Source of the DNA: an uncultured Sutterella sp.
Lineage (GTDB): Bacteria; Pseudomonadota; Gammaproteobacteria; Burkholderiales; Burkholderiaceae_F
Direction: 5' to 3'
DNA length: 30,000 nt
Assembly (NCBI GenBank): GCA_937943605.1
Contig: CALEAW010000089.1
Coordinates: 4,592-34,591 of the forward strand
Shown: positions 1,491 to 23,849 of the stretch, piece after piece
How the letters are laid out: each line of letters opens with the position of its first letter
Numbering within the stretch: position 1 is the first letter of the stretch
The notes under the pieces: model-generated
Database searches by the model: none
Seen by the model: only the letters and a program-made list of their open reading frames with translations
Told to the model about the DNA's origin: nothing
Translations under genes and position numbers: made by a program

Positions 1491-1772
1491 TTAGCCCTGA
1501 CGGTATTCAATACCGAACGTGCCACGCGGCAGTTCCCACTTATCAAAGAGGGTCTTGCCACAGAGGAAGCGGCAGGTACCGCATTCCAAGCAACCAGCGT
1601 AGTCAAAACGGTAGGAGCCGTCTTCCTGGATGCTGTAAAGGCCAGCTGGACAAGCCTTCACTAATTTCATGAATTCCTTCTTATCGATGTTGGACTTCAA
1701 CACGATGTGAGCGTTTTCTTCGTCAACGTAGAACTTATTAACGCTCAGCTTTTCGTCAACATTCATGCTCAT
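1491..1772 (-). CDS. fixX: Ferredoxin-like protein FixX
   Basis: 93 aa, with CPAGLY...CLECGTC cysteine motifs. It looks colinear with E. coli FixX (about 95 aa) from memory. Its ATG overlaps the fixC TGA as ATGA at 1769-1772. Confidence 0.9.
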   Translation of the reverse strand: MSMNVDEKLSVNKFYVDEENAHIVLKSNIDKKEFMKLVKACPAGLYSIQEDGSYRFDYAGCLECGTCRFLCGKTLFDKWELPRGTFGIEYRQG

Positions 1773-3067
1773 ATTGCCTTACCTCCCTTATAGGCATCCT
1801 TCAAGACGTTCATGAAACCGACTTCCTTGACGCGAGCAGCGATCTTCTTACGGAGCGGTTCAGCGGGCTTGCTACCCAACACGAACATGTCATGCATCAT
1901 GCCGGCCATCATCTTGGGATAGGCGTTGAAGAGACGATCGTTTTCGAAGAAGCTCGGGAGATCACGATAGAGTTCAAGGTCGTGCATCACGAAGCTAGCC
2001 TTCAAGCGGGTTTCGTAGCTCTTCAAGGTATTGGCGCTGAAGTCACCCTTTTCGAGGGCTTCGAGCACGGCTTCACCAGCCTTTTCACCGGAGCAGATAG
2101 CGAGGTCAATACCGCGCACCGTGAAGCCCTGGTTGATACAGAAGCCAGCGGAGTCACCAACAACCATCACGCCATCAGCGTAGAGCTTCGGGCACATGTT
2201 GATACCGGCTTCCGGAACAACGTGGCCAGAGTATTCAACGAGTTCGCCGCCTTCCAAAAGAGGCTTAACCGTCGGATGGTTCTTGAAGTCTTCAAGCATT
2301 TCAGGCACGGTCTTGGAGCTTTCACCAACGTGAGCAAGGCCAGCAACGACGCCGACCGAAACCGTATCCTTGTTGGTATAGATGAAGCCGCCACCCATGA
2401 GGCCGTTAGAAGGCGTACCGGCAAAGAGCCAAGCCGTACCTTCGTCACCTTCGAGCTGGAAGCGAGACTTCAAAACATCTTCCGGCAAGCGGATGAGTTC
2501 CTTGGCACCGACAGCCACAGCGGTCGGATCGCAAGGACGGGTAGCCATGCCTAACTTTTCCGTCAGGATGGTGTTCACACCCTCAGCGATGATCACGCAC
2601 TTAGCATCGATGCGATCGCCGTCGGCTTCAATACCGCAAACCTTACCGTTTTCGTCACGGATCACTTCGTCAACGCGCACACCGTAAATGATCTGGGCGC
2701 CAACTTCTTCGGCCTTACCAGCGAGCCACTGGTCAAACGTGCCGCGAAGCACCGTGTAGGATTCTTCAACTTTGCTCTTGGGTTCATGCGTACGATAGTC
2801 CAGCGTCACGCCAGCTTCGTCCGTCAAGAAAGAAACCTTTTCCGTCGTCACACGACGTTCAACAGGGGCTTCATCAGCGAAACCCGGAATGATCCTTTCA
2901 AGACTATGGGCATACAAACGACCGCCCGTCATGTTCTTGGCGCCAGCATAGTTACCGCGTTCGACTACGAGAACGTTAGCACCAGCCTTGGCCATGACAT
3001 AGGCCGCCGTCGCACCAGCAGGGCCAGCACCGACGACAACGCAATCAAATGCATCTTCTTCAGACAT
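1769..3067 (-). CDS. fixC: FixC, ETF-quinone-oxidoreductase-like FAD flavoprotein
   Basis: 432 aa, with an N-terminal dinucleotide fold VVVGAGPAGATAA...VLVVERG. The size and position between fixB and fixX match E. coli FixC (about 428 aa). An AGGAAG SD lies upstream. Confidence 0.9.
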   Translation of the reverse strand: MSEEDAFDCVVVGAGPAGATAAYVMAKAGANVLVVERGNYAGAKNMTGGRLYAHSLERIIPGFADEAPVERRVTTEKVSFLTDEAGVTLDYRTHEPKSKVEESYTVLRGTFDQWLAGKAEEVGAQIIYGVRVDEVIRDENGKVCGIEADGDRIDAKCVIIAEGVNTILTEKLGMATRPCDPTAVAVGAKELIRLPEDVLKSRFQLEGDEGTAWLFAGTPSNGLMGGGFIYTNKDTVSVGVVAGLAHVGESSKTVPEMLEDFKNHPTVKPLLEGGELVEYSGHVVPEAGINMCPKLYADGVMVVGDSAGFCINQGFTVRGIDLAICSGEKAGEAVLEALEKGDFSANTLKSYETRLKASFVMHDLELYRDLPSFFENDRLFNAYPKMMAGMMHDMFVLGSKPAEPLRKKIAARVKEVGFMNVLKDAYKGGKAI

Positions 3068-3248: not shown

Positions 3249-4181
3249 TTACTTAAGGGCAGCCGTCAGCTTCGGGAGAACCTTCTGGAGGTCGCCCACG
3301 AGACCGAAGTCCGCGTACTTGAAGACCGGAGCCTTCTTGTCCTTATTGATGGCAAAGACCACATTGGCGCGGTTGACACCGACCATGTGCTGGATCTGAC
3401 CGGAAATACCAACAGCCATGTAGAAGTCAGGCTTCAACATAACGCCGGAAACACCGATGTAACGTTCACGTTCCATCCACTGTTCGCCTTCGGCGATCGG
3501 ACGGGAGCAGCCAACTTCAGCACCGATAGCAGCAGCGAAGTCGTCAGCGAGCTTGAGGTCTTCCTGCTTGGAGAAGCCACGGCCAACACCGATCACACGC
3601 TTGGCGCGGGAAAGGTCAACACCGCCAACAGCCTTAGCGATCACGCCGATACGACGGATACCGGAAACGGCCGGAGCAACGAAGTCGAGCGTCACGACTT
3701 CACCAGAACGGGAAGCGTCAGCCGGAAGAGCAGCAAAGAGACCGCCACCGATCGTCACGATAGCAACGTCGCTCACAACCTTTTCGTTGGAGACAGCGAG
3801 ACCACCGTAAACGAGGTGAGAGAGAGAATCGTCAGCGCCGAATTCGGAAACATCGTTCACGACACCAGCGTTGAGCATGGCACCGAGCTTGCCAGCGATA
3901 GCCTTGGCACGAACGGAAGCGGGCATGATGACGAGGGCGGGCTTAGCACCTTCGTTGATGGCCTTGGCCATCGTGTCGCAGTAGTCTTCGACGATCACGC
4001 CTTCAGCGGGGGTGCCGAGATCGAACACCTTGTCGGCGCCCATGGCAAAAGCGTTAGCGGCGCGGTCGGCACCGAAGACAAAGGTGTTGACGGCAGCGCC
4101 GAAGCTCTTACCAGCGGCGATGACGTCGGCCTGACGGTCGTTGAGATCACTAAACGTCCAAACGTTAACAAACTTGCTCAT
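3249..4181 (-). CDS. fixB: FixB, electron-transfer flavoprotein alpha subunit
   Basis: 310 aa, with the ETF-alpha C-terminal FAD signature PDFYMAVGISGQIQHMVG. The size matches E. coli FixB (about 313 aa). A GAGGATAGGAA SD region lies upstream. Confidence 0.9.
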   Translation of the reverse strand: MSKFVNVWTFSDLNDRQADVIAAGKSFGAAVNTFVFGADRAANAFAMGADKVFDLGTPAEGVIVEDYCDTMAKAINEGAKPALVIMPASVRAKAIAGKLGAMLNAGVVNDVSEFGADDSLSHLVYGGLAVSNEKVVSDVAIVTIGGGLFAALPADASRSGEVVTLDFVAPAVSGIRRIGVIAKAVGGVDLSRAKRVIGVGRGFSKQEDLKLADDFAAAIGAEVGCSRPIAEGEQWMERERYIGVSGVMLKPDFYMAVGISGQIQHMVGVNRANVVFAINKDKKAPVFKYADFGLVGDLQKVLPKLTAALK

Positions 4182-4205: not shown

Positions 4206-4982
4206 TTAGGCAGCGATGGCCTTGCGGATGTGTTCGATAAACTGTTCGATAGCGGCATCGTCATCACCTTCGATGACGACCTGCTGGCGGGCCTTCTGAG
4301 CCTGAGCGAGCACGCTGTTAACTTCGACGGAAGCGCCGTCGATCTGGGCGTTGACATCAGCGGCAGCGAGAACTTCAACCGGCTTCTTGGCAGCAGCCAA
4401 AATGGCGCGCATGGCCGGGATCTTCGGTTCGTTGATGTCGGCGGAAACGCTCACGACAGCCGGGAGCGTGATTTCAAGGGTTTCAACTTCGTTTTCAAGA
4501 CCGCGTTCAACCACGAGCTTGCCGCCTTCGCAGGAGACAATCTTGGAGACGCCGTTGATGGTCGGAACGCCGAGGTACTGACCGAGAAGGAGACCCGTCT
4601 GCTGTGCGTAGATGTCGCCGGAACCATTGCCGCAGAGAACGAGATCAAAGCCCTTGGCGCGCAAAGCAGCGGCGAGGACCTTGGCCGTTTCAGCCGGACG
4701 AAGGGCAGCGTAGGCATCATCCTGGAGAAGCAGGAGCGAATCAGGGCCGCGGGAGAGGACGTCCTTACGGGCCTTCGGGTTGGCCATAATGGCACCGCCA
4801 ACGCTCACAGCGACCACTTCGGTATCGGCCACGGCAGCCTTGAGCTCGCAAGCGGCTTCAATGGCGTTAAGATCGAACGGATTGACCTTGACCGTCGCCT
4901 TGGCTACATCGAGCGTGCGATCGGACTTGACCACAATGTCCTGTTCCTCATGGACGAACTTGAAAGCGGAATAGATTTTCAT
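4206..4982 (-). CDS. fixA: FixA, electron-transfer flavoprotein beta subunit
   Basis: 258 aa, with an ETF-beta-like sequence (MKIYSAFKFV...NPFDLNAIEAA...RKDVLSRGPD...LCGNGSGDIYAQQ). It looks colinear with E. coli FixA (about 256 aa) from memory. Confidence 0.9.
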   Translation of the reverse strand: MKIYSAFKFVHEEQDIVVKSDRTLDVAKATVKVNPFDLNAIEAACELKAAVADTEVVAVSVGGAIMANPKARKDVLSRGPDSLLLLQDDAYAALRPAETAKVLAAALRAKGFDLVLCGNGSGDIYAQQTGLLLGQYLGVPTINGVSKIVSCEGGKLVVERGLENEVETLEITLPAVVSVSADINEPKIPAMRAILAAAKKPVEVLAAADVNAQIDGASVEVNSVLAQAQKARQQVVIEGDDDAAIEQFIEHIRKAIAA

Positions 4983-5074: not shown

Positions 5075-5929
5075 TTACTTGTATTCAACGAGACCGAAGT
5101 TGAGGTAGAAGTGACCCGGCTTGTCGCAGTCTTCAACGTTGAAGTGGACGCAGTTGTCACCGAACTTCCAGATGCGCGTACGGATACGGCAGCCCGGGAA
5201 GAGCGGCTTCGTGATACGGGTCTTGAAGCGCGTCAGACGATCGGAGTCGCCGTCGAGAACGGCGTTGATGATGTGACGCACAGCGGTACCGGCCGTGGAA
5301 ACGGCGTGGAGGTTGGGCTTCGGATAGCCAAACTTCTGAGCGTATTCCCAGTCAATGTGCTGCGGATGGTAGTCGCCAGACAAGCGATAGATGCAAGCCT
5401 GGTTGAGCGGAATGACCTGTTCAACGACAAAGTCCGGTTCACGTTCCGGGATTTCGACGATGTCCTTCGGAGCCTTCGGGCCACCCCAGCCGCCGTCAAA
5501 AATGGCGCAGTCCCAGGATTCGTTCGTGAAGAGCAATTCGCCGGTTTCCTTGTCGCGCGTTTCGCCATAGTGCTGGGCGAGCGTGCCACGACCTTCACCG
5601 CGGTCAAAAAGACCCTTGAGGGTAACCATCGTTTCGAACGTGCCGTTGAGCTTGCTGAGCGGCTTCATGATGCGGAAGTCGAAGCCCCAGTGCAAAGAAC
5701 CACCCCATTCAAAGCCCCAGTCGATCGTCTTCGTGACTTCGGAAGCAACGATCGGGCAAGCGGCGATCATCGGGAGGATCTTCTGATCCTTTTCGTAGAC
5801 ATACTTCAGGTCGGTCTTACCGTCGTAGCCAGCACCGCAACCAAGCGCGAACAAGATGAGATCGCGGAAGTTGTAGTTGTAAATGAATGGGCCGTAGGTC
5901 TGGCCGACCATGTCGAGTTTCAGAGCCAT
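5075..5929 (-). CDS. MaoC-like / hydratase-2-type double hot-dog enoyl-CoA hydratase-dehydratase, occupying the caiD slot
   Basis: 284 aa, the typical length of a fused N+C hot-dog hydratase-2 domain. The C-terminal half carries YRLSGDYHPQHIDWEYA. This matches the hydratase-2 motif [YF]-x(1,2)-[LVIG]-[STGC]-G-D-x-N-P-[LIV]-H-x5-[AS], with the Asp and the +5 His kept but N->H and L->Q. A strong AAGGAG SD lies 7 nt upstream of the ATG. Confidence 0.8.
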   Translation of the reverse strand: MALKLDMVGQTYGPFIYNYNFRDLILFALGCGAGYDGKTDLKYVYEKDQKILPMIAACPIVASEVTKTIDWGFEWGGSLHWGFDFRIMKPLSKLNGTFETMVTLKGLFDRGEGRGTLAQHYGETRDKETGELLFTNESWDCAIFDGGWGGPKAPKDIVEIPEREPDFVVEQVIPLNQACIYRLSGDYHPQHIDWEYAQKFGYPKPNLHAVSTAGTAVRHIINAVLDGDSDRLTRFKTRITKPLFPGCRIRTRIWKFGDNCVHFNVEDCDKPGHFYLNFGLVEYK

Positions 5930-5959
5930 TTTTCACTCCTTGGTTAAGTAAAACACCTA

Positions 5960-7660: not shown

Positions 7661-8878
7661 TTACTTGGAGGTCACAACGACGCCCTTTTCTTCGAGGGCA
7701 GCGATTGCGGCATCGTCATAGCCGAGTTCGGTGAGCACGGCACGGGTGTCTTCACCACGAGCCGGCATACCACGCCAGATGCGACCCGGACGGTTCTTGA
7801 AGCGCGGCATCACGTTCGGACCCTTGACGGTGCGACCAGCGGAACCTTCCCAGGTCACGATGTCTTCACGGGCGATGTAATGCGGATGCTTTTCAAGTTC
7901 CTTAACGGTCATCATGCGGCCGCCAGCGATCTTGAGGCGAGCCATCACAGCTTCGGCGTCAGCCAACGTCATCTTGGCGAAGTAGGTGTCGAGAGCAGCT
8001 TCGATTTCAGCGCCACGCGGCATGGAAAGGAGAAGCAACTGGCAGCCTTCAGGGCAGCTTTCGGTGCCGAGAAGGTCGGCATAACCGAGTTCGGTCATCA
8101 TGCCAGCGACCTGCTTAACACCCACGAGTTCGACGCACATATAGCCGTCGGTGCACTTGTAGATACCGCAACCAACGCAGAGAGGATCCTTACCCTTCGT
8201 GGAGCGCGGATAGACCTTGCCTTCGTTGAAGTAATCCATCATGTAATATTGACCGACTCGCAAAAGCGCCTCGTACATAGAGATATCGATGGATTCGCCC
8301 TGGCCCGTCTGCTTGGCGCGATAGAGAGCAGCCAAAGCGGAGGAAAGGACCGTGAAGCCAGCGAAGTAGTCACCAGCGTACGGGAAGGCTGGGATCGGCT
8401 GATCGACTTCACCGTTCTGAACGAGGTAGCCAGAGAAGGCCTGAGCAATCAAGTCATAGGACGGCAGATTGACGTAGGCAGGATCGCCCCAGTGGCCATA
8501 GCCAGACAAGTGAGCGATAACGAGCTGCGGGTTGGCACCCCAGAGGAGATCGTCGGTGATGCCGTGGCGAGCCCAGGACGGACCCTTGCTCGATTCGATG
8601 AGGATGTCGGTCGTCTTCATGAGCTTGAGGAAGGCTTCCTTACCTTCTTCCGTGAAGACGTTGATGGTCATCGTATGGAAGTTACGGCGAGCAAGTTCGC
8701 AGTAGTTACGCTGCACACGGATCGTGTCAGGATAGGCCGTGTTTTCGAGCCAAATAACTTCGGCACCCCATTCAGCCATCATATGGGCTGGGAAAGGACC
8801 AGCGATTTCCATAGCGGAAACCACGACACGAACCCCATGGAGCGGGCCAAAATCCGGCGTTTGGATCTGGTTGGACAT
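7661..8878 (-). CDS. caiB: L-carnitine CoA-transferase (family III CoA-transferase)
   Basis: 405 aa, the same length as E. coli CaiB. It looks colinear by eye: GLRVV..IEIAGPF, EWGAEVIW.EN, and PAFPYAGDYFAG containing the family III catalytic Asp. An AAGGAA SD lies upstream. Confidence 0.9.
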   Translation of the reverse strand: MSNQIQTPDFGPLHGVRVVVSAMEIAGPFPAHMMAEWGAEVIWLENTAYPDTIRVQRNYCELARRNFHTMTINVFTEEGKEAFLKLMKTTDILIESSKGPSWARHGITDDLLWGANPQLVIAHLSGYGHWGDPAYVNLPSYDLIAQAFSGYLVQNGEVDQPIPAFPYAGDYFAGFTVLSSALAALYRAKQTGQGESIDISMYEALLRVGQYYMMDYFNEGKVYPRSTKGKDPLCVGCGIYKCTDGYMCVELVGVKQVAGMMTELGYADLLGTESCPEGCQLLLLSMPRGAEIEAALDTYFAKMTLADAEAVMARLKIAGGRMMTVKELEKHPHYIAREDIVTWEGSAGRTVKGPNVMPRFKNRPGRIWRGMPARGEDTRAVLTELGYDDAAIAALEEKGVVVTSK

Positions 8879-10162: not shown

Positions 10163-11683
10163 TTACTTCCACTCGGTATTTGCACGGGCTTCCTTGAAGA
10201 AGGAGACCGCGACGGCAATGTTCACGAAGAAGAGGAGGCAGCCGCCAACCACGATGGCCGTCTGGAGAGGCTTAATGCCGCCAAGAGCCATCAGAGCGAG
10301 AGCGATAGCACCCACGAGGAGCGACCACACCACACGAACCCAAACCGGCGGTTCGTCGTAGCCACCAACGTCCTTACAGGTGGACATGGCGAGCGTGTAA
10401 GAGCAACCGTTAACCAACGTCAAGGTGGCGAGGAAGCAGAGGACGAAGAAGACAACGATCGTCGCCGTGCTCATCGGAAGGGCAGCCCACGTTTCGATAA
10501 TGGCGCGAGCAACACCGTGCTGTTCGATGATGGCCGGAATGTCAAGAGCCTTCGTCATCAAGAGATGGATCGTGTTGGAACCGAGGATCGGCCAAATCAA
10601 CCAGGTCGTAGCCGTCACGCCGCCAACCACAGCGACAGAGACTTCACGCACCGTACGACCGCGAGAGATGCGGGCGAAGAAGAGGCACGTCTGGATCGTG
10701 AAGATCACCCACCAGGCCCAGTAGAAGACCGTCCAGCTCTGCGGGAAGCCCGTACCGCGGATAGAGTCCGTGTTGAACATCATGCGGCCGAGGTTGTTCA
10801 AGAGAACGCCAACGGAGTCGGTGAAGTAGTTGATCGTGAAGCTGGTAGCACCAACAACGAGAACCCAAGCGAGGATGAGAATCGTCAAGTAGGAACGAAG
10901 GTCAGAGGCGAGCTTCACACCCTTTTCGAGACCGAAGGTCACGCAAATGGCGTTAACGATAATCCAAGCGAGCACGATGCCAGCGTCGAGGCCGAGGGTA
11001 TGCGGGATACCGAAGAGCCACTGCATGCATTCCGTAACCAACGGCGTGGAAAGGCCGAGACTGGTACTCATGGCGAGCAGCAAAGCGACGAGGTAGAGGT
11101 TGTCGATCAACGTGCCGAGGAAGCCCTTAGAAGCCTTCTTACCGATCACGGCTTCAACCGTGCCGGACGGACGAACAACGTCAATCTTCTTCACATAGAG
11201 GAAGTAACCGAAAGCAACCGTAAAGAAGCCGAAGGTAGACCAGGACACCGGACCCCAGTGGAACATGGCGTAAGCCAAACTGGTTTCGATGGCTTCAGGA
11301 GACATCGGAGCGTAGCCAAACGGAGGCTGCGTAGCGTAGTAGTAGACTTCGATGGCACCCCAGAAGAGCACAGCAGCGGAAGTCGAAGACGCGAAGAGCA
11401 AGAAGATCCAGCTAGGCGTGCTGAATTCAGGCGCTTCTTCACCGAGCTTGCGGTTAGCCCACGGCCCAAAGATGAGCCAGAGCCAAAGGATGAGTGTCAC
11501 AACGATGTACCACTCGAAAACCCAACCAAAGGTATGGGTGACGTAGTTAAACGCAGCACTAATCACTGCGTTAGCGGCTTCAAGGTCCTGCATGACCGCC
11601 GCAATCAAGGCCACGGAAATGAGCAAAGGTGGGAAAAACACCTTTGGATCAATCGTGATCTTCTTTTTTGCTTGTTGAACCAT
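10163..11683 (-). CDS. caiT: BCCT-family L-carnitine/gamma-butyrobetaine antiporter
   Basis: 506 aa, with the BCCT signature WTVFYWAWW. Long blocks appear identical to E. coli CaiT as recalled ([40 protein letters not shown]). A GGAAGGAAG SD lies upstream. Confidence 0.9.
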
Positions 11684-11738
11684 GTCTTCCTTCCATCAAA
11701 AGACGTTTGAAAATGTTTTGCCCGCCTTCTCTTCATCG

Positions 11739-11757
11739 GGCATATGCATCATATGCC
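11739..11757. promoter_or_regulatory. Perfect palindrome GGCATATG-CAT-CATATGCC, 56-74 nt upstream of the caiT ATG
   Basis: The 8-bp arms at 11739-11746 and 11750-11757 are exact reverse complements with a 3-nt spacer. It could be an operator or a 5'-UTR hairpin. Confidence 0.5.
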
Positions 11758-11797
11758 TTTTGATACGAATCGGTCTAATCCGAAAACCCCACTCCTA

Positions 11798-11817
11798 ATC
11801 TTGGAAAATTACGAAAC
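11798..11817. repeat. Motif copy A (ATCTTGGAAAATTACGAAAC) of the reiterated intergenic motif
   Basis: It matches copy B at about 17 of 20 positions. It lies 115 nt upstream of the caiT ATG. Related half-sites are ATCTTGTA at 11828-11835 and ATCTTAAAAA at 11871-11880. Confidence 0.5.
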
Positions 11818-12062
11818 TAGATGGGTTATCTTGTATTTTTCCAACTTTACAGTTTGATTAAACTCAAACAAATCTTAAAAAGTCGTCAGACAGGGTTTTC
11901 GAAAGACTTCTATTTTTACGAGACGATGGTGTACTACTTCTCACCACAAAGTTGTTAAAACCCCATTTGACGCCAACTGTCTATTACACACACTTAAACT
12001 ATGTATTAAACTTTGTTTCAGTCGTTTTTGGTTATTTGTCTAAGAAATACACCCTAATACGG

Positions 12063-12087
12063 ATCTTGTAAAATTACAAAATCACTT
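12063..12087. repeat. Motif copy B (ATCTTGTAAAATTACAAAATCACTT)
   Basis: It contains the inverted repeat TTGTA-N4-TACAA and matches copy C at 22 of 25 positions by eye. Confidence 0.6.
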
Positions 12088-12343
12088 ATCCTTTATGATT
12101 AAAAGCACGCTAGTCTATAGTCTAGTTAGTATTGGTTTTATAGACGACACTGACCTACATACTTCCTGGATCAAACTCACCAGCTCGAGACATAAAAAAT
12201 CTAACTAACACAGTATGGTCTGACTGTTATTTATTGCAAATTCTTTCAGACAATCATGTTTATAGTACCAGACCAGTTTAGTTAATTATTTATAACTAGA
12301 CAATTCATATCTAAAAGCCAAAAAGACCAAAAACCAGGGTTGA

Positions 12344-12368
12344 ATCTTGTAAAACAACAAGATCACTT
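12344..12368. repeat. Motif copy C (ATCTTGTAAAACAACAAGATCACTT)
   Basis: It contains the perfect 7-bp inverted repeat ATCTTGT-N6-ACAAGAT and shares the flanking ATCACTT with copy B. Confidence 0.6.
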
Positions 12369-12652
12369 TTCAAAACATGCGTATCTTTACGTAGGTCAAA
12401 CATCCGTGGGCGCACCAGTCACCCCTTTTCTCGCCGCCCTATTCTCGGTGTCGTTCGATTTTGGTCGTGCCTTTTACGGAGTTTTTGAGGTTTAACGAAC
12501 GCTTTGCTACTCAAAAGCCGTCCTTGTCTCTATATAGAAACCGTGACCGATCTTTACTTTTCGTGTCGACCTGTAGCGCTCTCCTTTTGAAGCATGATTG
12601 ACAAAGTCACGCGTTTTATAATGAAGTCTTCTTTGATTTGGAGGCTTTGCCC

Positions 12653-13366
12653 ATGGTTCGCTTTGATATTTCTGGTGGTATTGATCCGTTGTTGAACGCT
12701 ACGCTTGAAAAAGGAGACGCCATCTTGGCTGAATCCAATGCTATGGTGGCTATGGACAGCAAGTTAAGCCTTAAAGGCAAGGCGCGCGGTGGGCTCATGA
12801 GTAGCATTGCCCGCAAGTTCTTGAATGACGAAACGTTCTTTCAGCAGCGTATCGAAGCTGAAGAATGTGGCGGCTCCGTGCTTTTAGCTCCCAATCTACC
12901 TGGCGACGTTCGCATTCTTGATATTGGTGCTTCGCAATACTTATTGACGGATGGCGCTTTTTTAGCGTCTACCGATGGCGTTTCGCTTGAAACGCGCTCT
13001 CAAGGCCTTGGTCGCGCACTCTTAGGCAATTCCGGCGGCCTCTTTATCATGGGTACCCAAGGCCAAGGTCAATTGGTTGTCTCTGGTTTTGGCTCTATTC
13101 GAGAGCTTGAAGTGACACCAGACCGTCCGATCACGATTGACAACGGCCACTTGGTCGCCTGGGAATCTACGCTTGATTATGAACTCAGCCTCAATACTGC
13201 ACGCAGTGGCTTCTTAGGTAAGCTCGTTCACAGTCAAACGACGGGTGAAGGCATCGTGCTTAAATTCCGTGGTCACGGTCGTGTCATCGTTTGTTCTCGC
13301 AACAAGGGCGGCTTTTTAGACTGGATTCTCGGCAATATGCCTAACCAAAAAGACGTCGAGAATTAA
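12653..13366 (+). CDS. AIM24 / TIGR00266 (DUF124)-family protein
   Basis: The track ORF starts at TTG 12638. A GGAGG at 12640-12644 sits 8 nt before the ATG at 12653 (MVRFDISGG...), which I prefer as the start. The overall pattern (F.I.G......L..GD.I..E..AMV.MD, Gly-rich beta-rich body, about 237 aa) is what I associate with the AIM24/TIGR00266 family. Confidence 0.6.
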   Translation: MVRFDISGGIDPLLNATLEKGDAILAESNAMVAMDSKLSLKGKARGGLMSSIARKFLNDETFFQQRIEAEECGGSVLLAPNLPGDVRILDIGASQYLLTDGAFLASTDGVSLETRSQGLGRALLGNSGGLFIMGTQGQGQLVVSGFGSIRELEVTPDRPITIDNGHLVAWESTLDYELSLNTARSGFLGKLVHSQTTGEGIVLKFRGHGRVIVCSRNKGGFLDWILGNMPNQKDVEN

Positions 13367-13401
13367 CCAACACGCATACTTTAGAAGACAATCCTCAGAC
13401 A

Positions 13402-13443
13402 ACAGTGCCACGCAAGCAATCCGCTTCGTGGCACTGTTTGTTT
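13402..13443 (+). terminator. Rho-independent terminator after the AIM24-like gene
   Basis: acagtgccacg (13402-13412) pairs with cgtggcactgt (13427-13437). An inner aagc/gctt extension lengthens the stem. TTGTTT follows. Confidence 0.75.
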
Positions 13444-13656
13444 AATGTGACAAATACTTTTGATCCCTTAAACGATAGGAAGATTCAAATAGTTACGTTT
13501 CACGGGAAAATCCGTGAGATTGACTGCCTAGAGCCTCAAATTTTTCACCACAAACCCCTAAAAACAAGGCATGATATTAAGTAAGGGCACGATGCGCTGA
13601 ATAACCTTTTTTAAGCCTGTGAGACAACCAGTGCAATCGTGCGTGGAGGTAATCAT

Positions 13657-14550
13657 ATGAATATTCTTGTACCGATTGATGGCACTGAACACAGCCTTCG
13701 TGCCGTGGAATTCCTTACGACTCGCACCGACCTTTTGGGCGAAAATCCTCACATCACCATTTTTATGGCACAGATGCCTGTACCCCAGCGTGTCCTTGCT
13801 GGCGTTCAGCCGATTGCTGTCGAGGATTTTTATAAAGAAGAAGCTCAATCCGTCTTTTCATCCGTTCGTGCACTTTTAGGTGATTCGCCCCTTAATATCG
13901 ACATGCGTTATAGCGTCGGTATGCCGGCTGAAGACATCGTCGCTGAAGCTGATCGCCTTGATGCCGATCTCATCATCATGGGGATTCGTGGTCATGGCCC
14001 GGTCAATAGCTTCTTGTTTGGCTCGGTCTCTAATGCCGTCCTCGCTAACACGCATCGTCCTGTCTTGATGCTTCGAAATAAGCTCCCTGAAGGCACGTCT
14101 AACCTGCGTGTGGGTTTGGCTGTTGACGGCTCTAGCTACACCGAACGCGCTGTCGACTTCGTGCTTTCGCACCGTGCACTCTTTGGTGATACACCGCGCG
14201 TTGAACTTTTGAACGCCGGTCAAATCACTCACCCGATCGGCCTCTCTTCAGTGGCCAGCATGATGTCTAGTGGCAATACGGCACGAGACATGCTTGAAAT
14301 GCGTGAACGGGTGTTGGATTCTGTGATGACGCCGTTGCTGCCAAAGTTTATTAAGGTGGGTCTCGACCCGAAGGTGGTACGCCTTGACGGTAACCCAGGT
14401 GACGAAATTGCCCACTACGCCGAAACGACCCCACTTGACCTCTTGGTCATGGGTTCCCACGGCTATGGCAACTTCCGCTCTGCTGTTATGGGCTCTACCG
14501 CGATGAAGATCGCTGCTGAAAGCTCGGTGCCGCTTTTGATTATCCGTTAA
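13657..14550 (+). CDS. Tandem-domain universal stress protein (UspE-like architecture)
   Basis: GGAGG lies 7 nt upstream of the ATG at 13657 (MNILVPIDGTEHS), so the track start at 13639 is probably too early. There are two USP domains. Each carries the ATP-binding-type G-x2-G-x9-G-S/T motif (GIRGHGPVNSFLFGSVS and GSHGYGNFRSAVMGSTA). Confidence 0.85.
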   Translation: MNILVPIDGTEHSLRAVEFLTTRTDLLGENPHITIFMAQMPVPQRVLAGVQPIAVEDFYKEEAQSVFSSVRALLGDSPLNIDMRYSVGMPAEDIVAEADRLDADLIIMGIRGHGPVNSFLFGSVSNAVLANTHRPVLMLRNKLPEGTSNLRVGLAVDGSSYTERAVDFVLSHRALFGDTPRVELLNAGQITHPIGLSSVASMMSSGNTARDMLEMRERVLDSVMTPLLPKFIKVGLDPKVVRLDGNPGDEIAHYAETTPLDLLVMGSHGYGNFRSAVMGSTAMKIAAESSVPLLIIR

Positions 14551-14576
14551 TCGAACATCCAAAGCGACAAACAACC

Positions 14577-14616
14577 AAAAGGCGCTCGACTGATACCTCA
14601 ACGAGCGCCTTTCTTC
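14577..14616. terminator. Bidirectional stem-loop terminator between the convergent USP and Hsp20 genes
   Basis: aaaaggcgctcg (14577-14588) pairs with cgagcgccttt (14602-14612). An A-run lies on the left and TTCTTCT on the right. Confidence 0.65.
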
Positions 14617-14657
14617 TATGCACGGTATTCACTGAATTTGAATACCTTCACTGGTCG

Positions 14658-15098
14658 TTATTCGATCGCGATGCACTTTTTCTCACAGGTCTTCATTTCC
14701 TTCTTCGGAATGGAAATACTCAAGACACCATAATCGTACTTCGCCTTGATGTCTTCTTCGCGTACGCCTTCACCGACGTAGAAGGCACGACTCAAAGCGC
14801 CAGACCAACGTTCGCGGCGGATGCAAGTGCCTTTCTTTTCGTTGTTCTGACATTCTTCGACCGCTTTTTCAGCGCTAACAATCAAATAACCGTCCTTCAA
14901 CGTGGCAGAAATCTGATCCTTCTTAAAGCCCGGCAGGTCGATATCCAATTCCCAGGTTTTGTCGTTTTCGCGTACGTCAGTCTTCATCAAGCGACTGGCA
15001 CGATTGCCAAAGAGCTTGTCACGATTTGTAGTGCGAAAGGCGTCAAACGGGAACGTGTCGTCGAGCAGGTTTTCACCAAATACGCTAGGTAATAGCAT
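14658..15098 (-). CDS. Small heat-shock protein, Hsp20/alpha-crystallin family
   Basis: Alpha-crystallin motifs are present (WELDIDLPGFKKDQI ... YDYGVLSISIPKK). GGAGGAAAACC precedes the ATG at 15098 (MLLPSVFGE...), giving 146 aa. The 179-aa track ORF is a 5' over-extension. Confidence 0.9.
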   Translation of the reverse strand: MLLPSVFGENLLDDTFPFDAFRTTNRDKLFGNRASRLMKTDVRENDKTWELDIDLPGFKKDQISATLKDGYLIVSAEKAVEECQNNEKKGTCIRRERWSGALSRAFYVGEGVREEDIKAKYDYGVLSISIPKKEMKTCEKKCIAIE

Positions 15099-15181
15099 GG
15101 TTTTCCTCCAAGAGTTTCTTGCCGTCGACCATGGCGGCATAGGACGTCGAGCATCACAATTCGGTGCCCGATCTACTTCGT

Positions 15182-15211
15182 ATATGGAGGCGTTCACGCC
15201 CTACACAAGGG
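15182..15211 (-). promoter_or_regulatory. Sigma32-like heat-shock promoter upstream of the Hsp20 gene
   Basis: The minus strand reads CCCTTGTGT-N12/13-CTCCATAT, against the E. coli sigma32 consensus CTTGAAA-N13-14-CCCCATNT. The -35 matches in its CTTG core and the -10 matches at 7 of 8. It lies about 84 nt upstream of the ATG. Confidence 0.35.
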
Positions 15212-15297
15212 CTAAGTTACGATTTGTTTAATCTGTCATACATCATTCATATAGACTGACTTTTAGTTAACTTCATCATTGCGTATTACATAAAAAA

Positions 15298-16491
15298 TCA
15301 ATCCTTTGACACCAAAATACGCTTGAAGACCGGCACCACTCGCCAGAGACAGTAAGCCGCCGCCAAGAGCGCAATACCACCACCCACATAGCCAATCTCG
15401 CCAATCGAAAGGTGCGTACAGACCACGCCGCCCACCAAAGCGCCCGACCCAATACCAACGTTATAGATGCCTGAAAAAACTGACATCGCAATGGCGGTGC
15501 CTGTCGGCGCAGCCGCAATGATGGCTGATTGGAATGTAAGGTTGTAGAGCGTAACCGCAAAGCCCCAGAAGAGACACAACACGAAGACCGTGACTTCGGC
15601 GGTTGCAGCCTCTCGCATCAAAAGTAGGCTCAAAGCCATACCAACCACCGCAGCCTTCATAAAGGTCAGTGGATGGCGATCATAAAAGTGCGAAAAGACC
15701 CAACTCCCTACAATGCCTACTGCACCATAAGCGACCAACACCCATGTAATGTGATCAGGCACCATGCCCGTCACTTGCGCTAAGAAGGGCTCGATATAGC
15801 TATAGACCGTAAAGTTACCGGTCATGATGATAGGCGTCAGAATATAGATGCCAAGCAACGCGGGCTGCGTTAGCAATTTAGGCACTTGGCGGAGTTTGAC
15901 TGCCTGCTGACTTTCAACACTCGGGAAGAAGCGCCACAAGCAAAAGAGCGCCAAAGCGGCCGTCAAACCTATCGCCAAAAAGGTCACGCGCCAACCAAGG
16001 TAAAGCCCCAACACACGCCCCAACGGTAGCCCGGCAATCATCGCAATCGAAGAACCCGCAACCACCATACTCAAGGCCGTCGAGCGCTTGTGTTTAGGCG
16101 CCACTTCAACGGCCAGAGGACTCACTACCGACCAAAAGATGGCATGTGAGCACGCCACGCCGAGTCGTGAAATCAGAAGCATCCAATAGCTTGTTGAAAC
16201 CGCCGACAAACAGTGACTGCCGACAAAGAGCGCCAATATCAGCATCATCAGACGCCGGCACTCCATCTTGGCTGCAAGAAGCATCAGGGGTAGTGATAAG
16301 ATGGCCACCACCCAGGCATAAATGGTCACAAGCCACCCTGTTTGCGCTTCTGTCGTACCAAAGTCTCGCCCGATATCAGTCAACAAACCGATCGGAATGA
16401 ACTCGGACGTATTGAAGACAAACGCACAAAGCGTGAGCGTAAGCACAGGTAGCCACGTCACAAAAGTCGCTTTCAGTGAAGGTGTCGACAT
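15298..16491 (-). CDS. sotB: MFS DHA1-type sugar efflux transporter, SotB/YdeA-like
   Basis: 397 aa. It looks colinear with E. coli SotB (396 aa, recalled): FNT.EF.P.GLL.DI, TIYAWVVA..SLP.ML, HAIFWS, GLPLGR, YSYIEPF, and FSGI.N.GIG.GALVG. Confidence 0.75.
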   Translation of the reverse strand: MSTPSLKATFVTWLPVLTLTLCAFVFNTSEFIPIGLLTDIGRDFGTTEAQTGWLVTIYAWVVAILSLPLMLLAAKMECRRLMMLILALFVGSHCLSAVSTSYWMLLISRLGVACSHAIFWSVVSPLAVEVAPKHKRSTALSMVVAGSSIAMIAGLPLGRVLGLYLGWRVTFLAIGLTAALALFCLWRFFPSVESQQAVKLRQVPKLLTQPALLGIYILTPIIMTGNFTVYSYIEPFLAQVTGMVPDHITWVLVAYGAVGIVGSWVFSHFYDRHPLTFMKAAVVGMALSLLLMREAATAEVTVFVLCLFWGFAVTLYNLTFQSAIIAAAPTGTAIAMSVFSGIYNVGIGSGALVGGVVCTHLSIGEIGYVGGGIALLAAAYCLWRVVPVFKRILVSKD

Positions 16492-16523
16492 CGTTAATCC
16501 AGCCGCATCAAAAGAGATTGATT

Positions 16524-16542
16524 GAGGCTCTCTTTGAGCCTC
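16524..16542 (-). terminator. Possible weak terminator or insulator hairpin between the ABC-2 operon and the sotB-like gene
   Basis: GAGGCTC-tcttt-GAGCCTC forms a 7-bp stem. The T-rich flank is better on the plus strand, which has no gene, than on the minus strand, so function is uncertain. Confidence 0.25.
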
Positions 16543-16622
16543 TTTATAAGATTGAAGGGACTAGATTTTACGCCTAAACGACTGAAACGGTGGCATAAGA
16601 CCGTTAAAAAACCGCAACCGAC

Positions 16623-17729
16623 TTACACGATCTTGTGCCTAAACAAGTAGCTCGCCACGAACATCGAGACCACCCCCATCATCGCCACAGGCCAAGCGAG
16701 TGGCAAGACATCAATGAGCGAAGCACCTTCAAAATAGATGGCGCGTAAAGCCTGGATGCTATAGCGCATCGGATTCAAAATCGTCAACGTTTGCATCCAT
16801 TCGGGCATGGCTCGAACGGACGTCATTAGGCCTGACAAAATCACCATGGGCAGCATCATAAAGATGATGGCCACGATCGATTGTTGAATGTTTTTGGCCA
16901 TAGCCGAAACAGCTAAGCCTAAGCCCACCATGGAGACGCTATAACCTAAGACAAAGAGTCCTAATTCGATGAACGATCCAATAAACGGCAGTTCAAACCA
17001 CCAAAAGCCAATGGCAAAAATCATAAAAGCCTGCACACAGGCAATCAGGGTGGGGATAATGCTTTTGCCAATCAAGATTTCCACACTGTCGGCTGGCGTC
17101 ATCAGCATCATGTCAAAAGAGCCGTCTTCTCGTTCACGCGAAACCGAAAGCCCAGCGAGCAATAGCACTTGAATCGTGGCAAGCGCCAAAATGAGTGGCG
17201 GAACAATGGTATACCGCGTAATGCCGTTTTCATTCCAACGATAGCGTTCTCGAAGTTGCAAACCACCCTCGCCAACACCATGCGCGTCATTCACTTTTTT
17301 GACGATGCTGTATAGATATCCTAACGCAATCCCAGCTGTGGTCGAATTACGTGCATCGGTCACCACCATCATTTCGCCTGAACGCGCAAAGTCGTTCGAA
17401 AAGTAGACACCGACAAGCGATTCAGCTTTGTCAATTGACCGCTCAAAGTCCGTCAAAGAAACAGCGTTTCGTTGCAAATCAAAAATTCCCGTCCCTTCGA
17501 TGCGACGAATGACTTCGGCGGACGCGGACGAATGCGACTCATCAAGAAGCGTCCAAGGGACACGCTCAAGGTTAAAGGTCGCACCGTAACCAAAGAGAAT
17601 GGCTTGCGCAAAAACGGGGACGATCAAAACGACGCGAGAGCCTTTGTCGCCTAAAATGACGGCTAGTTCTTTGAGCACAATCGCATAAATACGGTTGAGC
17701 GACATGAGCCAACGTTGCCAAATGGTCAT
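16623..17729 (-). CDS. ABC-2-type transporter permease, YbhR-like
   Basis: 368 aa from MTIWQRWLMSLNRIYAIVLKE. Its ATG overlaps the TGA of the upstream permease as ATGA (17726-17729), so the 409-aa track ORF is over-extended. It has a long periplasmic loop followed by five C-terminal TM segments, typical of the ABC-2 family. Confidence 0.85.
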   Translation of the reverse strand: MTIWQRWLMSLNRIYAIVLKELAVILGDKGSRVVLIVPVFAQAILFGYGATFNLERVPWTLLDESHSSASAEVIRRIEGTGIFDLQRNAVSLTDFERSIDKAESLVGVYFSNDFARSGEMMVVTDARNSTTAGIALGYLYSIVKKVNDAHGVGEGGLQLRERYRWNENGITRYTIVPPLILALATIQVLLLAGLSVSREREDGSFDMMLMTPADSVEILIGKSIIPTLIACVQAFMIFAIGFWWFELPFIGSFIELGLFVLGYSVSMVGLGLAVSAMAKNIQQSIVAIIFMMLPMVILSGLMTSVRAMPEWMQTLTILNPMRYSIQALRAIYFEGASLIDVLPLAWPVAMMGVVSMFVASYLFRHKIV

Positions 17730-18928
17730 GACGCCTCCTTTGTCAGAGCGGTTGACTTTGGGCGCCTTTGAGACGAACGCTTTTGCAACATCTGTATCGT
17801 CACCAATGCCGCAAGCGTTATCCAGCCTACAAGTATGCACGCATTTTGCCAAACTAAAGGACCATCACCCGCTAAGAAGATTTGCTTTAAGGCTTCCATC
17901 GCATAGGTAGGCGGCAAAAGGCGTCCAACCACTTCAATCCATTCAGGGACGCTACGCAAATCAAACAAGAAACCCGAGAGCATGAGGCTAGGCAAAAAGG
18001 CCAAGACAACCGTGGCCTCAGTGGCCAAAAATTGGCTCTTCGTTTTCGCGGACAAAAAGAGCCCTAAGACGGACGACCATCCCGAAAGCAAGGCAAGCAT
18101 CACTAATAGCGCAAAGAGACTTCCTCGAAGCGGCACTTCAAATAACGTTTGCGCCACGATCAAACACAATAAACTCCCTAAAAAGGTCACCACCCAATAC
18201 GGAAGCCACTTACTCAAGAAGATTTCAAGCACAGAAGCCGGCGTCGCAAATAAGGCCGACATCGTACCTCGCTCCCATTCTCGCGCCACCACAATGGCAC
18301 ACATGAGACCACCCGCAATTCCGGTCACCAAAACAAAGAGCCCTGGCACGATGTACCACGTTGAAATCATGCCTTCGTTAAACCAACTACGAGAGACAAG
18401 GTTTTTCACGGGCAACGCTTGCGCGAGCGTTGCTTCGTCAATATCGATCAAACCGCTCTTTTGCTGCTTGGCAATCGATGTTTGAATCACGCCTTCTGCA
18501 TAGGTCTTAAAAAGCAAAGCTGACTGGCTATCCACACCATAGACGGTGAGTCCCATCAAGGCTTGTCGACCATTCATTAAGTCCGCCGTAAAGCCACTAG
18601 GGATCGTGAGGACAAGTTCGACAGCTCGATTTTCAAAGGCGCTTTCAGCCGCTTGAGACGAATGAAAAACTTCGGTTCTGAAATGTTGATTGGCCGTCAA
18701 GTCAACCGCAATACGGCGAGCAGTGAGTGAACGGTCTTCTAGCACCACGGCAGTAGGAATATGCCGCATATCAAGTGAAATGCCATAGCCGTAAATCAAC
18801 AGCATAAAGATCGGCAAAAAGAGCCCGATCACTAGAGAGGACGGATCACGCAGGATCTGTCGACACTCTTTCAAGAGAAGCGCTCGACATCGGGCGGCTG
18901 AAAACCGTAATCCACCACGCTTAGTCAT
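17726..18928 (-). CDS. ABC-2-type transporter permease, YbhS-like
   Basis: 400 aa with ABC-2 permease architecture. Its start overlaps the ATPase stop by 8 nt (ATGACTAA, 18921-18928). Confidence 0.85.
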   Translation of the reverse strand: MTKRGGLRFSAARCRALLLKECRQILRDPSSLVIGLFLPIFMLLIYGYGISLDMRHIPTAVVLEDRSLTARRIAVDLTANQHFRTEVFHSSQAAESAFENRAVELVLTIPSGFTADLMNGRQALMGLTVYGVDSQSALLFKTYAEGVIQTSIAKQQKSGLIDIDEATLAQALPVKNLVSRSWFNEGMISTWYIVPGLFVLVTGIAGGLMCAIVVAREWERGTMSALFATPASVLEIFLSKWLPYWVVTFLGSLLCLIVAQTLFEVPLRGSLFALLVMLALLSGWSSVLGLFLSAKTKSQFLATEATVVLAFLPSLMLSGFLFDLRSVPEWIEVVGRLLPPTYAMEALKQIFLAGDGPLVWQNACILVGWITLAALVTIQMLQKRSSQRRPKSTALTKEAS

Positions 18929-20804: not shown

Positions 20805-20814
20805 GACGACACCT

Positions 20815-21801: not shown

Positions 21802-21911
21802 ACTGACCTACTATCAATTGTCACGTGAATGTCCAAAACCACGCGCTTTTACGTTACCTGGAGATTAGCATGACAAAAAACCGAAATCGCTTAACGTGTG
21901 CGTCCTCTGTT

Positions 21912-23846: not shown

Positions 23847-23849
23847 CCT

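Follow-up and report, generated by a model that had tools for sequence, protein, structure and literature searches.

A hydratase-2-type hot-dog protein in the caiD position of a Sutterella carnitine operon as a probable non-homologous carnitinyl-CoA dehydratase

The main anaerobic route to trimethylamine (TMA) begins with L-carnitine being converted into gamma-butyrobetaine. The closest described system is the caiTABCDE-fixABCX system, in which CaiD, as known from Escherichia coli and Proteus, is a crotonase-fold protein. Crotonases use two Glu residues as their catalytic pair; they and the hot-dog hydratases are the classic case of two folds with mirror-image products. In this report, a stretch of 30,000 nucleotides from an uncultured Sutterella sp. 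(contig CALEAW010000089.1, positions 4,592 to 34,591; hereafter the window) is analyzed. The window encodes CaiT, CaiA, CaiB, CaiC and FixABCX, whereas tblastn searches of the 30 kb gave no match to caiD, caiE or caiF, and E. coli CaiD as a query detected no crotonase even at E<1. The slot after caiC is occupied by a gene for a MaoC/hydratase-2-like protein with a hot-dog fold, here called the hot-dog protein. It has the same neighbors as CaiD (CaiT, CaiA, CaiB, CaiC, FixABCX and YaaU), is distributed across cai clusters in an either/or manner with CaiD and is proposed to catalyze the same reaction, although the two proteins have no sequence or fold relationship and their usual facial selectivities are opposite. 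The hot-dog protein is probably the carnitinyl-coenzyme A (CoA) dehydratase of the cluster, a non-homologous CaiD analog that would act on natural L-carnitine. One step of a known pathway would then have been taken over by an uncharacterized clade of unrelated fold.

The closest systems in terms of fold are hydratase 2 of MFE-2 (human 1s9c; Candida tropicalis 1pn2/1pn4) and the Mycobacterium tuberculosis MaoC protein 3khp, which have the two-domain hot-dog fold in common with the Sutterella protein at about 29-30% identity. The elements Y-R-L-S-G-D...H-x-D, a downstream L-H-[GA] and the catalytic Asp and His are shared. The hot-dog protein differs from MFE-2 hydratase 2 in its motif (Asn to His, Leu to Gln and P-x-F to W-x-Y) and in the N-domain residues W81, F83, Q119, H120, E137, W139, D140 and C141. 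It is encoded by a stand-alone gene in a carnitine operon, whereas MFE-2 hydratase 2 is part of beta-oxidation, and instead of a (3R)-hydroxy fatty acyl-CoA it presumably uses an L-series acyl-CoA that is short and has a quaternary ammonium group. The gene and its parts are as follows.

5075..5929, minus strand: hot-dog gene (MaoC/hydratase-2-like, proposed CaiD analog), stop codon included; from the open reading frame (ORF) and its translation, Pfam PF22622 and PF01575, AlphaFold2 and Foldseek
5936..5941, minus strand: Shine-Dalgarno sequence AAGGAG, 6 nt 5' of the ATG; from reading of the sequence
5516..5881, minus strand: N-terminal hot-dog domain, residues 17-138; from Pfam MFE-2_hydrat-2_N, comparison of clade and outgroup and modeled beta-strands
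5153..5455, minus strand: C-terminal MaoC dehydratase domain, residues 159-259; from Pfam PF01575
5339..5389, minus strand: hydratase-2 motif YRLSGDYHPQHIDWEYA, residues 181-197; D186 and H191 catalytic and kept, H188, Q190, W194 and Y196 clade-specific

The ORF has 284 codons, starts with an ATG at 5929-5927 and is separated from the caiC stop codon by 30 nt. Two Pfam domains were found in the protein, MFE-2_hydrat-2_N (PF22622) at residues 17-138 (E 4e-11, 43.3 bits) and MaoC_dehydratas (PF01575) at residues 159-259 (E 2e-16, 60.1 bits), both with a gathering cut-off of 27. The Pfam scan found no crotonase (ECH) domain, and zero NCBIfam models matched the protein. Among solved structures, human MFE-2 hydratase 2 (1s9c, E 2e-35) and 3khp are the closest in sequence. 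An AlphaFold2 model made with 38 homologs as input has a predicted local distance difference test (pLDDT) score of 89.5 and a predicted template modeling (pTM) score of 0.88. Foldseek against the PDB placed 1s9c at the top (template modeling (TM) score 0.89, E 2e-29), with further two-domain hydratase-2 structures ranking below it, including 3khp (TM 0.86-0.87). The N-domain of the model contains beta-strands at residues 78-87, 96-109, 116-126 and 132-142. D186 and H191 correspond in the alignment to the Asp and His in the canonical G-D-x-N-P-L-H of 1s9c and 3khp, which reads G-D-Y-H-P-Q-H here. The strict hydratase-2 consensus is G-D-x-N-P-[LIV]-H, and the hot-dog protein departs from it at two positions (Asn to His and Leu to Gln). 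The protein belongs to the MaoC/hydratase-2 superfamily in its domains, its fold and its catalytic residues; it has no crotonase fold and is outside the CaiD family. An earlier note on this DNA, made from the letters alone, had described a 284-aa hydratase-2 protein between caiC and fixA, with no strand given (it is the minus strand), with the catalytic Asp and His retained and with a MaoC fold instead of a crotonase fold. This description is borne out by the translation and the alignment, and the Pfam search and structure prediction that it had proposed both agree with it.

A homolog search gave 662 relatives, of which the top ~100 are 55-100% identical and 280-293 aa long. The nearest genome relatives (93-94% identity) are from Sutterella/Sutterellaceae assemblies. 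Nearly the whole clade is contained in one representative of a library clustered at 50% identity. This representative scores 381 bits, while the next one (P0178, 45% identity) scores 225 bits and is followed by a gradual fall to ~170 bits and below (32-37% identity). The drop from 381 to 225 bits indicates that the hot-dog clade is sharply bounded and apart from other hydratase-2 proteins. Its motif G-D-x-H-P-Q-H-x-D-W-x-Y is invariant, and D186, H188, P189, Q190, H191, D193, W194 and Y196 are present in all 81 cai-linked orthologs. The two motif changes reported in the earlier note are therefore real. H188, Q190 and W194 are absent from the 22 nearest outgroup sequences, except for one with His at 188; the outgroups have N, F, Y or L at 188, L at 190 and P at 194. 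The change from Asn to His is thus a signature of the clade, yet alone it says nothing on facial selectivity because the Asn position is variable (N/F/Y/L) in the nearest bacterial outgroups. The earlier suggestion that these changes reflect an altered selectivity stands only in part, as the changes exist but the Asn to His change by itself is no proof.

Further clade-invariant residues are located in the N-domain sheet (D70, W81, F83, Q119, H120, E137, W139, D140 and C141), where the outgroups have glycine, glutamine or aliphatic residues. We take this sheet to be the one that lines the fatty-acyl tail pocket in MFE-2 structures. On the presumed acyl-tail side of the N-domain, Trp, Phe, Tyr, Asp, Glu and His are thus found as invariant residues. 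Since aromatic and acidic side chains there replace aliphatic ones, as would be expected for a trimethylammonium head group, we infer that they form a pocket for it.

The conservation also bears on whether the gene could be a passenger that is decaying or without function, for which no supporting evidence was found. Its reading frame is intact, the ribosome-binding site is strong, the orthologs are 57-94% identical across five phyla and the ratio of non-synonymous to synonymous divergence (dN/dS) is 0.027 in a pair of Ferrimonas sequences. In addition, 49 columns are invariant in an alignment of 38 homologs that includes paralog subfamilies of 46-51% identity, and the identical protein sequence is recorded in 109 blocks of a public assembly index. 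This conservation effectively refutes a passenger gene, which can be dismissed with near certainty.

The genomic context of the clade was studied in two samples. The first was a genome scan with one genome per species, which gave 115 relatives and 80 retained loci, mapped with the window proteins and E. coli proteins. The hot-dog gene is inside a cai/fix cluster in all 80 loci. It directly follows caiC in 63, follows caiC-caiD in 13 and follows a tandem paralog in 2, and the remaining 2 are cut by a contig edge. Wherever 6 kb or more of upstream DNA is available, caiA, caiB and caiC are all present (68/68 loci). The five phyla are Pseudomonadota, Desulfobacterota, Bacillota, Actinomycetota and Ca. 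Dormiibacterota. The hosts include Sutterella, Shewanella, Ferrimonas, Endozoicomonas and Enterobacillus in the Pseudomonadota; Desulfovibrionales (Desulfobaculum, Maridesulfovibrio and Pseudodesulfovibrio) and a Geopsychrobacteraceae metagenome-assembled genome (MAG) in the Desulfobacterota; Schinkia, Neobacillus, Desulfitobacterium, Sporomusa and Syntrophomonas in the Bacillota; Actinomyces, Schaalia, Trueperella, Arcanobacterium, Cellulomonas, Propionibacteriaceae and Coriobacteriales in the Actinomycetota; and one MAG in the Dormiibacterota. The hot-dog clade spans more phyla than CaiD in its textbook form.

With E. coli CaiD as the tblastn query, 67 of the 80 loci yielded no crotonase match, even at E<1. 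The 13 loci with a crotonase are all from Shewanella or Ferrimonas and have the order caiTABC-caiD-hot-dog-caiE. In Enterobacillus tribolii (Enterobacterales), the E. coli layout is present, with yaaU-fixXCBA divergent from caiTABC, and the hot-dog gene occupies the caiD-caiE slot in a cluster without caiD and caiE. No DNA-level relative of the hot-dog gene was found in 5,426 complete E. coli genomes. A plasmid search gave one true relative, in a partial cluster on a Curtobacterium plasmid; the remaining plasmid matches are generic MaoC proteins of 32-36% identity and were rejected.

The 80 loci were anchored on the hot-dog gene itself, and a second sample was anchored on CaiB to avoid that bias. 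Metagenome contigs were scanned with a CaiB alignment, and 60 loci were evaluable, meaning that the DNA after caiC was present. A crotonase only was found in 35, a hot-dog gene only in 22, both in 3 and neither in 0, so that the hot-dog gene is present in 25 of the 60. The crotonase-only loci are mostly Enterobacterales-like (33/35). Two non-enterobacterial clusters without a hot-dog gene each have a crotonase in the operon. The first (L155; crotonase-MFS-esterase-caiA-caiB-caiC-MFS, where MFS is the major facilitator superfamily) is 79-87% identical in CaiA and 81-84% in CaiB to two clusters with both hydratases (L156/L162), and 73% and 75%, respectively, to a hot-dog-only Coriobacteriales cluster (L082). 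The second (L128; fixAB-crotonase-SSF-esterase-caiTABC-fixCX, where SSF denotes a sodium:solute symporter) is 79-80% identical in CaiA and 73-75% in CaiB to hot-dog-only clusters (L129/L096). Because all three states (crotonase only, hot-dog only and both) persist in sister clusters, the exchange of hydratase type points to non-orthologous gene displacement. The functional assignment of the hot-dog protein follows mainly from this pattern, in which every evaluable cai cluster has at least one hydratase and close relatives differ only in which one. The replacement of CaiD by a non-homologous protein, as put forward in the earlier note, is thus strongly supported by comparative genomics, but it is not universal, since some lineages keep the crotonase as well.

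The same data bear on a different role for the hot-dog protein. It might act on a different enoyl-betaine-CoA, eliminate from O-acylcarnitinyl-CoA, function as a thioesterase or be a non-catalytic partner of CaiB or CaiC, while a crotonase elsewhere carries out the dehydration. Crotonases are common, and the Sutterella genome beyond the 30 kb is out of view. Paralog subfamilies without the catalytic Asp (P0099 and P0121, Asp to Asn; an Endozoicomonas tandem copy, Asp to Ile) still adjoin CaiB-like CoA-transferases, which suggests that not every hot-dog member needs hydratase chemistry, and the divergence of CaiB tracks the hydratase type, perhaps through physical partnership. Such a role is nevertheless unlikely for the main clade. 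The Asp and His are kept in 81 of 81 main-clade orthologs, none of the 60 CaiB-anchored clusters is without both hydratase types, the two hot-dog-less non-enterobacterial clusters each have a crotonase in the operon, and CaiT, CaiA, CaiB and CaiC of the window all score as carnitine-enzyme equivalogs. The last point also disfavors the proposal in the earlier note that the physiological substrate is a different one. In addition, CaiA in hot-dog-only clusters is 75-85% identical to E. coli CaiA, which argues for the same enoyl-CoA intermediate.

Recently, a related gap has been described in Propionibacterium freudenreichii, where a caiABC...fixABCX cluster lacks caiD and 'an enoyl-CoA hydratase' between these genes 'might fill' the gap (Roder et al. 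2024, Scoary2, PMC11007987). Hydrolase and transporter genes in that cluster were associated with natural acylcarnitine depletion and with a rise in carnitine and putative gamma-butyrobetaine. The gene order matches Actinomycetaceae loci such as L048 (MFS, esterase, caiA, caiB, caiC, hot-dog, MFS, metallo-beta-lactamase (MBL)-fold hydrolase, fixABCX). An Abhydrolase_3 esterase is encoded in 78 cai loci, among which both hydratase types are represented, and it is adjoined by an MFS transporter in the loci examined; this pair resembles the hydrolase/transporter pair tied to acylcarnitine depletion (PMC11007987). The paper gives no fold, sequence family, stereochemical point or enzyme assay for its hydratase. 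In the searchable literature, it holds the only mention of a possible gap-filling hydratase, and no biochemical characterization of the hot-dog clade was found there.

The stereochemistry of the reaction sets a further question. In carnitine, CH2N+ outranks CH2COO- under the Cahn-Ingold-Prelog (CIP) rules, and in an ordinary 3-hydroxyacyl-CoA, CH2COSCoA outranks the alkyl side. L-carnitine is (R) by CIP yet spatially belongs to the L/(S)-3-hydroxyacyl series; this derivation, made in the earlier note, was repeated and holds, and it fits CaiD being a crotonase. The opposite stereochemistry of crotonase and MaoC families, also claimed there, is stated in a study of ChsH3 (MaoC-like) and EchA19 (crotonase) from M. 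tuberculosis (PMC8204306), in which the ChsH3 product is 22S. Both folds act there on one enoyl-CoA, a situation comparable to the double clusters of Shewanella and Ferrimonas. ChsH3 and EchA19 give opposite diastereomers that feed different branches, whereas in sister cai clusters one hydratase type takes the place of the other, which suggests a shared substrate enantiomer. CIP re-derivation showed that (3R)-hydroxyacyl-CoA, (2R,3S)-beta-methylmalyl-CoA and (S)-citramalyl-CoA all arise from the same canonical MaoC face. Because known MaoC-type products share this face, a canonical hot-dog enzyme would yield D-carnitinyl-CoA.

Several points weigh against a hot-dog dehydratase for L-carnitine. 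All characterized MaoC/hydratase-2 enzymes give the opposite (D/3R-like) stereochemistry (PMC8204306, plus the CIP re-derivations), and activity on L-carnitinyl-CoA would be unprecedented for the hot-dog fold. In Shewanella and Ferrimonas, caiD and the hot-dog gene are side by side and both under strong purifying selection. Between these species dN is 0.03-0.09 for caiD and 0.06-0.16 for the hot-dog gene, synonymous sites being saturated; in the one unsaturated pair (Ferrimonas), dN/dS is 0.072 for caiD as against 0.027 for the hot-dog gene. A Coriobacteriia-like lineage also has both genes. This coexistence would be unexpected for two fully redundant genes, so that redundancy of caiD and the hot-dog gene is not the whole story; in the two-hydratase genomes, opposite stereospecificity (a racemase), different kinetic roles or a second substrate are possible. 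A crotonase may also be present elsewhere in the Sutterella genome, beyond the 30-kb view. For P. freudenreichii, the link of its hydratase to the hot-dog clade is one of matching gene order only, and gamma-butyrobetaine in that study is a putative identification (PMC11007987).

These points raise the alternative that the protein is a D-specific hydratase using the canonical face, which would interconvert crotonobetainyl-CoA and D-carnitinyl-CoA. Together with a crotonase it would form a carnitine racemase, and alone it would allow the use of D-carnitine or crotonobetaine only. In fatty-acid oxidation, a crotonase and hydratase 2 together give 3-hydroxyacyl-CoA epimerase activity, which is a precedent for such a pair. 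The stereochemical rule of the fold and the purifying selection on both genes in the 13 Shewanella/Ferrimonas loci fit this alternative, as does the presence of both genes in the Coriobacteriia-like lineage. To our knowledge, D-carnitine is not an abundant natural compound, which weighs against it. The enterobacterial 'carnitine racemase' activity has been assigned to CaiD only loosely (PMC2131755), which would also fit. However, 67 of the 80 genome loci and 22 of the 25 hot-dog loci of the CaiB-anchored set have no crotonase in the locus, and under a D-specific enzyme these clusters would be unable to use natural L-carnitine. Many hot-dog-only clusters are from animal-associated bacteria and encode an acylcarnitine-type esterase, and the occurrence of all three states in sister clusters fits interchangeability over obligate complementarity. 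A D-specific enzyme is thus considered improbable, and the handling of D-carnitine alone, another option of the earlier note, is disfavored by the interchangeable hydratase types and the co-encoded esterase.

The sister-cluster interchangeability, the CaiA identity, the co-encoded esterase and the P. freudenreichii association together suggest that the clusters process natural L-carnitine. If the hot-dog protein dehydrates L-carnitinyl-CoA, an inverted facial selectivity follows for the hot-dog fold. Of the three options given in the earlier note, altered facial selectivity is, by these genomic comparisons, the most likely. On the stronger claim, that the clade would be the first hot-dog-fold hydratase on the L/(S)-type 3-hydroxyacyl series, with crotonase-like facial selectivity and the fold rule broken, the evidence is evenly balanced. 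In that case, the short cationic tail may be re-anchored in the aromatic/acidic pocket, which would present the other face of the double bond to the water bound by Asp and His.

In the proposed pathway, the operon would serve anaerobic carnitine respiration, with the hot-dog protein as the dehydratase step. L-carnitine would enter via CaiT and be converted to L-carnitinyl-CoA by CaiC and CaiB. The hot-dog protein would dehydrate L-carnitinyl-CoA to crotonobetainyl-CoA through the hydratase-2 Asp/His pair, after which CaiA would reduce crotonobetainyl-CoA, yielding gamma-butyrobetainyl-CoA, with electrons from FixABCX. CaiB would then move the CoA onto the next carnitine, freeing gamma-butyrobetaine.

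If this assignment is true, the hot-dog enzyme, and not CaiD, would be the taxonomically widespread carnitine dehydratase. A hot-dog enzyme acting in place of a crotonase on a natural substrate that is chiral would either break the rule or reveal an unexpected carnitine stereochemistry in bacteria, and in the first case fold would not dictate stereochemistry in the hot-dog hydratase superfamily. There is also an annotation gap, as the clade is without an NCBIfam model and has generic names ('MaoC/PaaZ C-terminal domain-containing protein', 'acyl dehydratase') or a misleading one ('3-alpha,7-alpha,12-alpha-trihydroxy-5-beta-cholest-24-enoyl-CoA hydratase'). A gamma-butyrobetaine gene-cluster database requires intact caiTABCDE and lists 20 genera, mostly Enterobacterales (PMC11857547). 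Because of this requirement, hot-dog-type clusters from Sutterella, Actinomyces/Schaalia, Trueperella, Coriobacteriales, Bacillota and Desulfovibrionales would escape such marker sets, and surveys of gut carnitine conversion to precursors of trimethylamine N-oxide (TMAO) miss them.

In the window, the hot-dog gene is the fifth of ten co-directional, tightly spaced genes on the minus strand, in the order caiT-A-B-C-X-fixABCX-yaaU, where X is the hot-dog gene. The other nine genes are listed below.

10163..11683, minus strand: caiT, L-carnitine/gamma-butyrobetaine antiporter (BCCT); NCBIfam NF002887, 784 bits (cut-off 541); 62% identity to E. coli
8974..10116, minus strand: caiA, crotonobetainyl-CoA reductase; NCBIfam NF002885, 705 bits (cut-off 540); 75% identity to E. 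coli
7661..8878, minus strand: caiB, L-carnitine CoA-transferase; NCBIfam NF002914, 603 bits (cut-off 413); 57% identity to E. coli
5960..7558, minus strand: caiC, crotonobetaine/carnitine-CoA ligase; NCBIfam NF005947 equivalog, 676 bits (cut-off 651); 43% identity to E. coli CaiC
4206..4982, minus strand: fixA, electron transfer flavoprotein (ETF) beta-type subunit; NCBIfam NF002888, 338 bits (cut-off 219); Pfam ETF
3249..4181, minus strand: fixB, ETF alpha-type subunit; Pfam ETF and ETF_alpha; 46% identity to E. coli FixB
1769..3067, minus strand: fixC, ETF-quinone oxidoreductase-like flavoprotein; NCBIfam NF007450, 584 bits (cut-off 466); 56% identity to E. coli
1491..1772, minus strand: fixX, ferredoxin-like; best NCBIfam NF011993 FixX, 138 bits (below the cut-off of 166); 65% identity to E. 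coli
67..1464, minus strand: yaaU-like MFS transporter, last gene of the operon; Pfam Sugar_tr/MFS_1; 46% identity to E. coli YaaU

CaiT, CaiA, CaiB and CaiC all score above the NCBIfam equivalog cut-offs and are 43-75% identical to the E. coli K-12 proteins, and FixABCX are present by Pfam/NCBIfam matches at 46-65% identity. The fix genes are co-linear with the cai genes in the window and not divergent from them, and yaaU is located 3' of fixX in E. coli as well. Upstream of caiT, a spacer of ~950 bp (11684-12637) is located in the most AT-rich stretch of the window, with a GC content of 0.48 in the block 11001-12000 and 0.42 in the block 12001-13000. The spacer gave no Rfam match, and a promoter scan of it gave fewer hits than shuffled sequence. 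No gene for a CaiF-like activator was detected in the window, and the non-enterobacterial loci have none either. The Coriobacteriales and Curtobacterium clusters have GerE/LuxR or IclR genes at their flanks.

The identity of CaiB follows the hydratase type and not the taxonomy, as E. coli CaiB shares 81% identity with the protein of Shewanella/Ferrimonas, where caiD is present, and 62% with that of the hot-dog-only Enterobacillus. For CaiT and CaiA this is reversed, E. coli being closer to Enterobacillus than to Shewanella/Ferrimonas. The tracking may reflect mosaic transfer or co-adaptation. The caiB genes compared are as follows.

Window, 7661-8878: caiB
L081, 4402-5616: caiB
L013, 6277-7488: caiB
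L087, 7122-8336: caiB

Multiple paralogs of the hot-dog gene were also observed. In Endozoicomonas (L006, L010; 9108-9959, plus strand), the main copy is preceded by a second tandem hot-dog paralog of 47% identity, which follows caiC. This paralog has Ile for the catalytic Asp (FRLIGIYHHLHADWEYA) and may be a non-catalytic partner subunit. A second cai-like cluster in Ferrimonas (L086, CP072679.1, 3272-15864) has the order fixABCX-MFS-CoA-transferase-hot-dog (P0099)-BCCT-ABC-acyl-CoA dehydrogenase and is without caiC. P0099 has Asn for the catalytic Asp (FRLLGNYHPLHVDWDYA), and this cluster may act on a different betaine. A family-III CoA-transferase and the hot-dog variant P0121 (Asp to Asn) form a two-gene unit in two further loci (L084, 8735-10873; L085, 5416-7554), from which caiA, caiC and the fix genes are absent. 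The unit of L084 is flanked by GerE regulators, and a pair of flavoprotein and cytochrome c3 genes is located ~6 kb upstream of it. The metagenome contig L096 has two hot-dog genes (5952 and 13531) ~7.5 kb apart with an esterase homolog between them; the copies are 66% and 68% identical to the window protein, and both have the motif GDTHPQHVDWDY. An apparent fusion of the CaiC C-terminus to a hot-dog protein (P0123) has a garbled middle, looks like a frameshifted gene call and was not used. A Psychrobacter plasmid module was also set aside as irrelevant, as it has caiA and caiB only.

Accessory genes recur in the clusters. A yaaU-like MFS transporter accompanies 50 of the 80 genome loci. In the Actinomycetota, which lack a BCCT-type CaiT, it directly follows the hot-dog gene (L048, 10911-12284; L082, 10785-12224). 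It may be a carrier for carnitine/gamma-butyrobetaine, and E. coli YaaU may be part of the same system. A gene for an MBL-fold hydrolase recurs downstream in 44 loci, which are mostly actinobacterial and include the Curtobacterium plasmid, with a few weaker matches (28-32%) outside this group. In Desulfobaculum and Endozoicomonas, a gene for an SSF symporter separates fixB from fixC, and in L128 such a gene comes after that of the crotonase; it may represent an extra or alternative uptake system. Examples of these genes are listed here, the first four entries being for esterase, MFS transporter or MBL-fold genes.

L048, 3696-6015 and 12288-12965: esterase/MFS/MBL-fold genes
L155, 1144-3499: esterase/MFS/MBL-fold genes
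L128, 5509-6477: esterase/MFS/MBL-fold genes
L089, 11040-11672: esterase/MFS/MBL-fold genes
L004, 13516-15138: SSF gene
L010, 13001-14599: SSF gene
L128, 3911-5512: SSF gene

In the Coriobacteriales contig L082, genes for a molybdopterin oxidoreductase, a 4Fe-4S protein and an NrfD-type membrane subunit (14523-18741) directly follow the cai/fix/hot-dog cluster and are another anaerobic-respiration module. The remainder of the Sutterella window (12638-30000), as read from its translations only, appears unrelated to the carnitine operon. It holds ORFs of 242, 303 and 179 aa, an MFS-like membrane protein, two ABC-2-type permease-like ORFs, a double ATPase and a periplasmic adaptor-like ORF. Three further, large ORFs (644, 1223 and 821+ aa) resemble a RecBCD-type helicase-nuclease.

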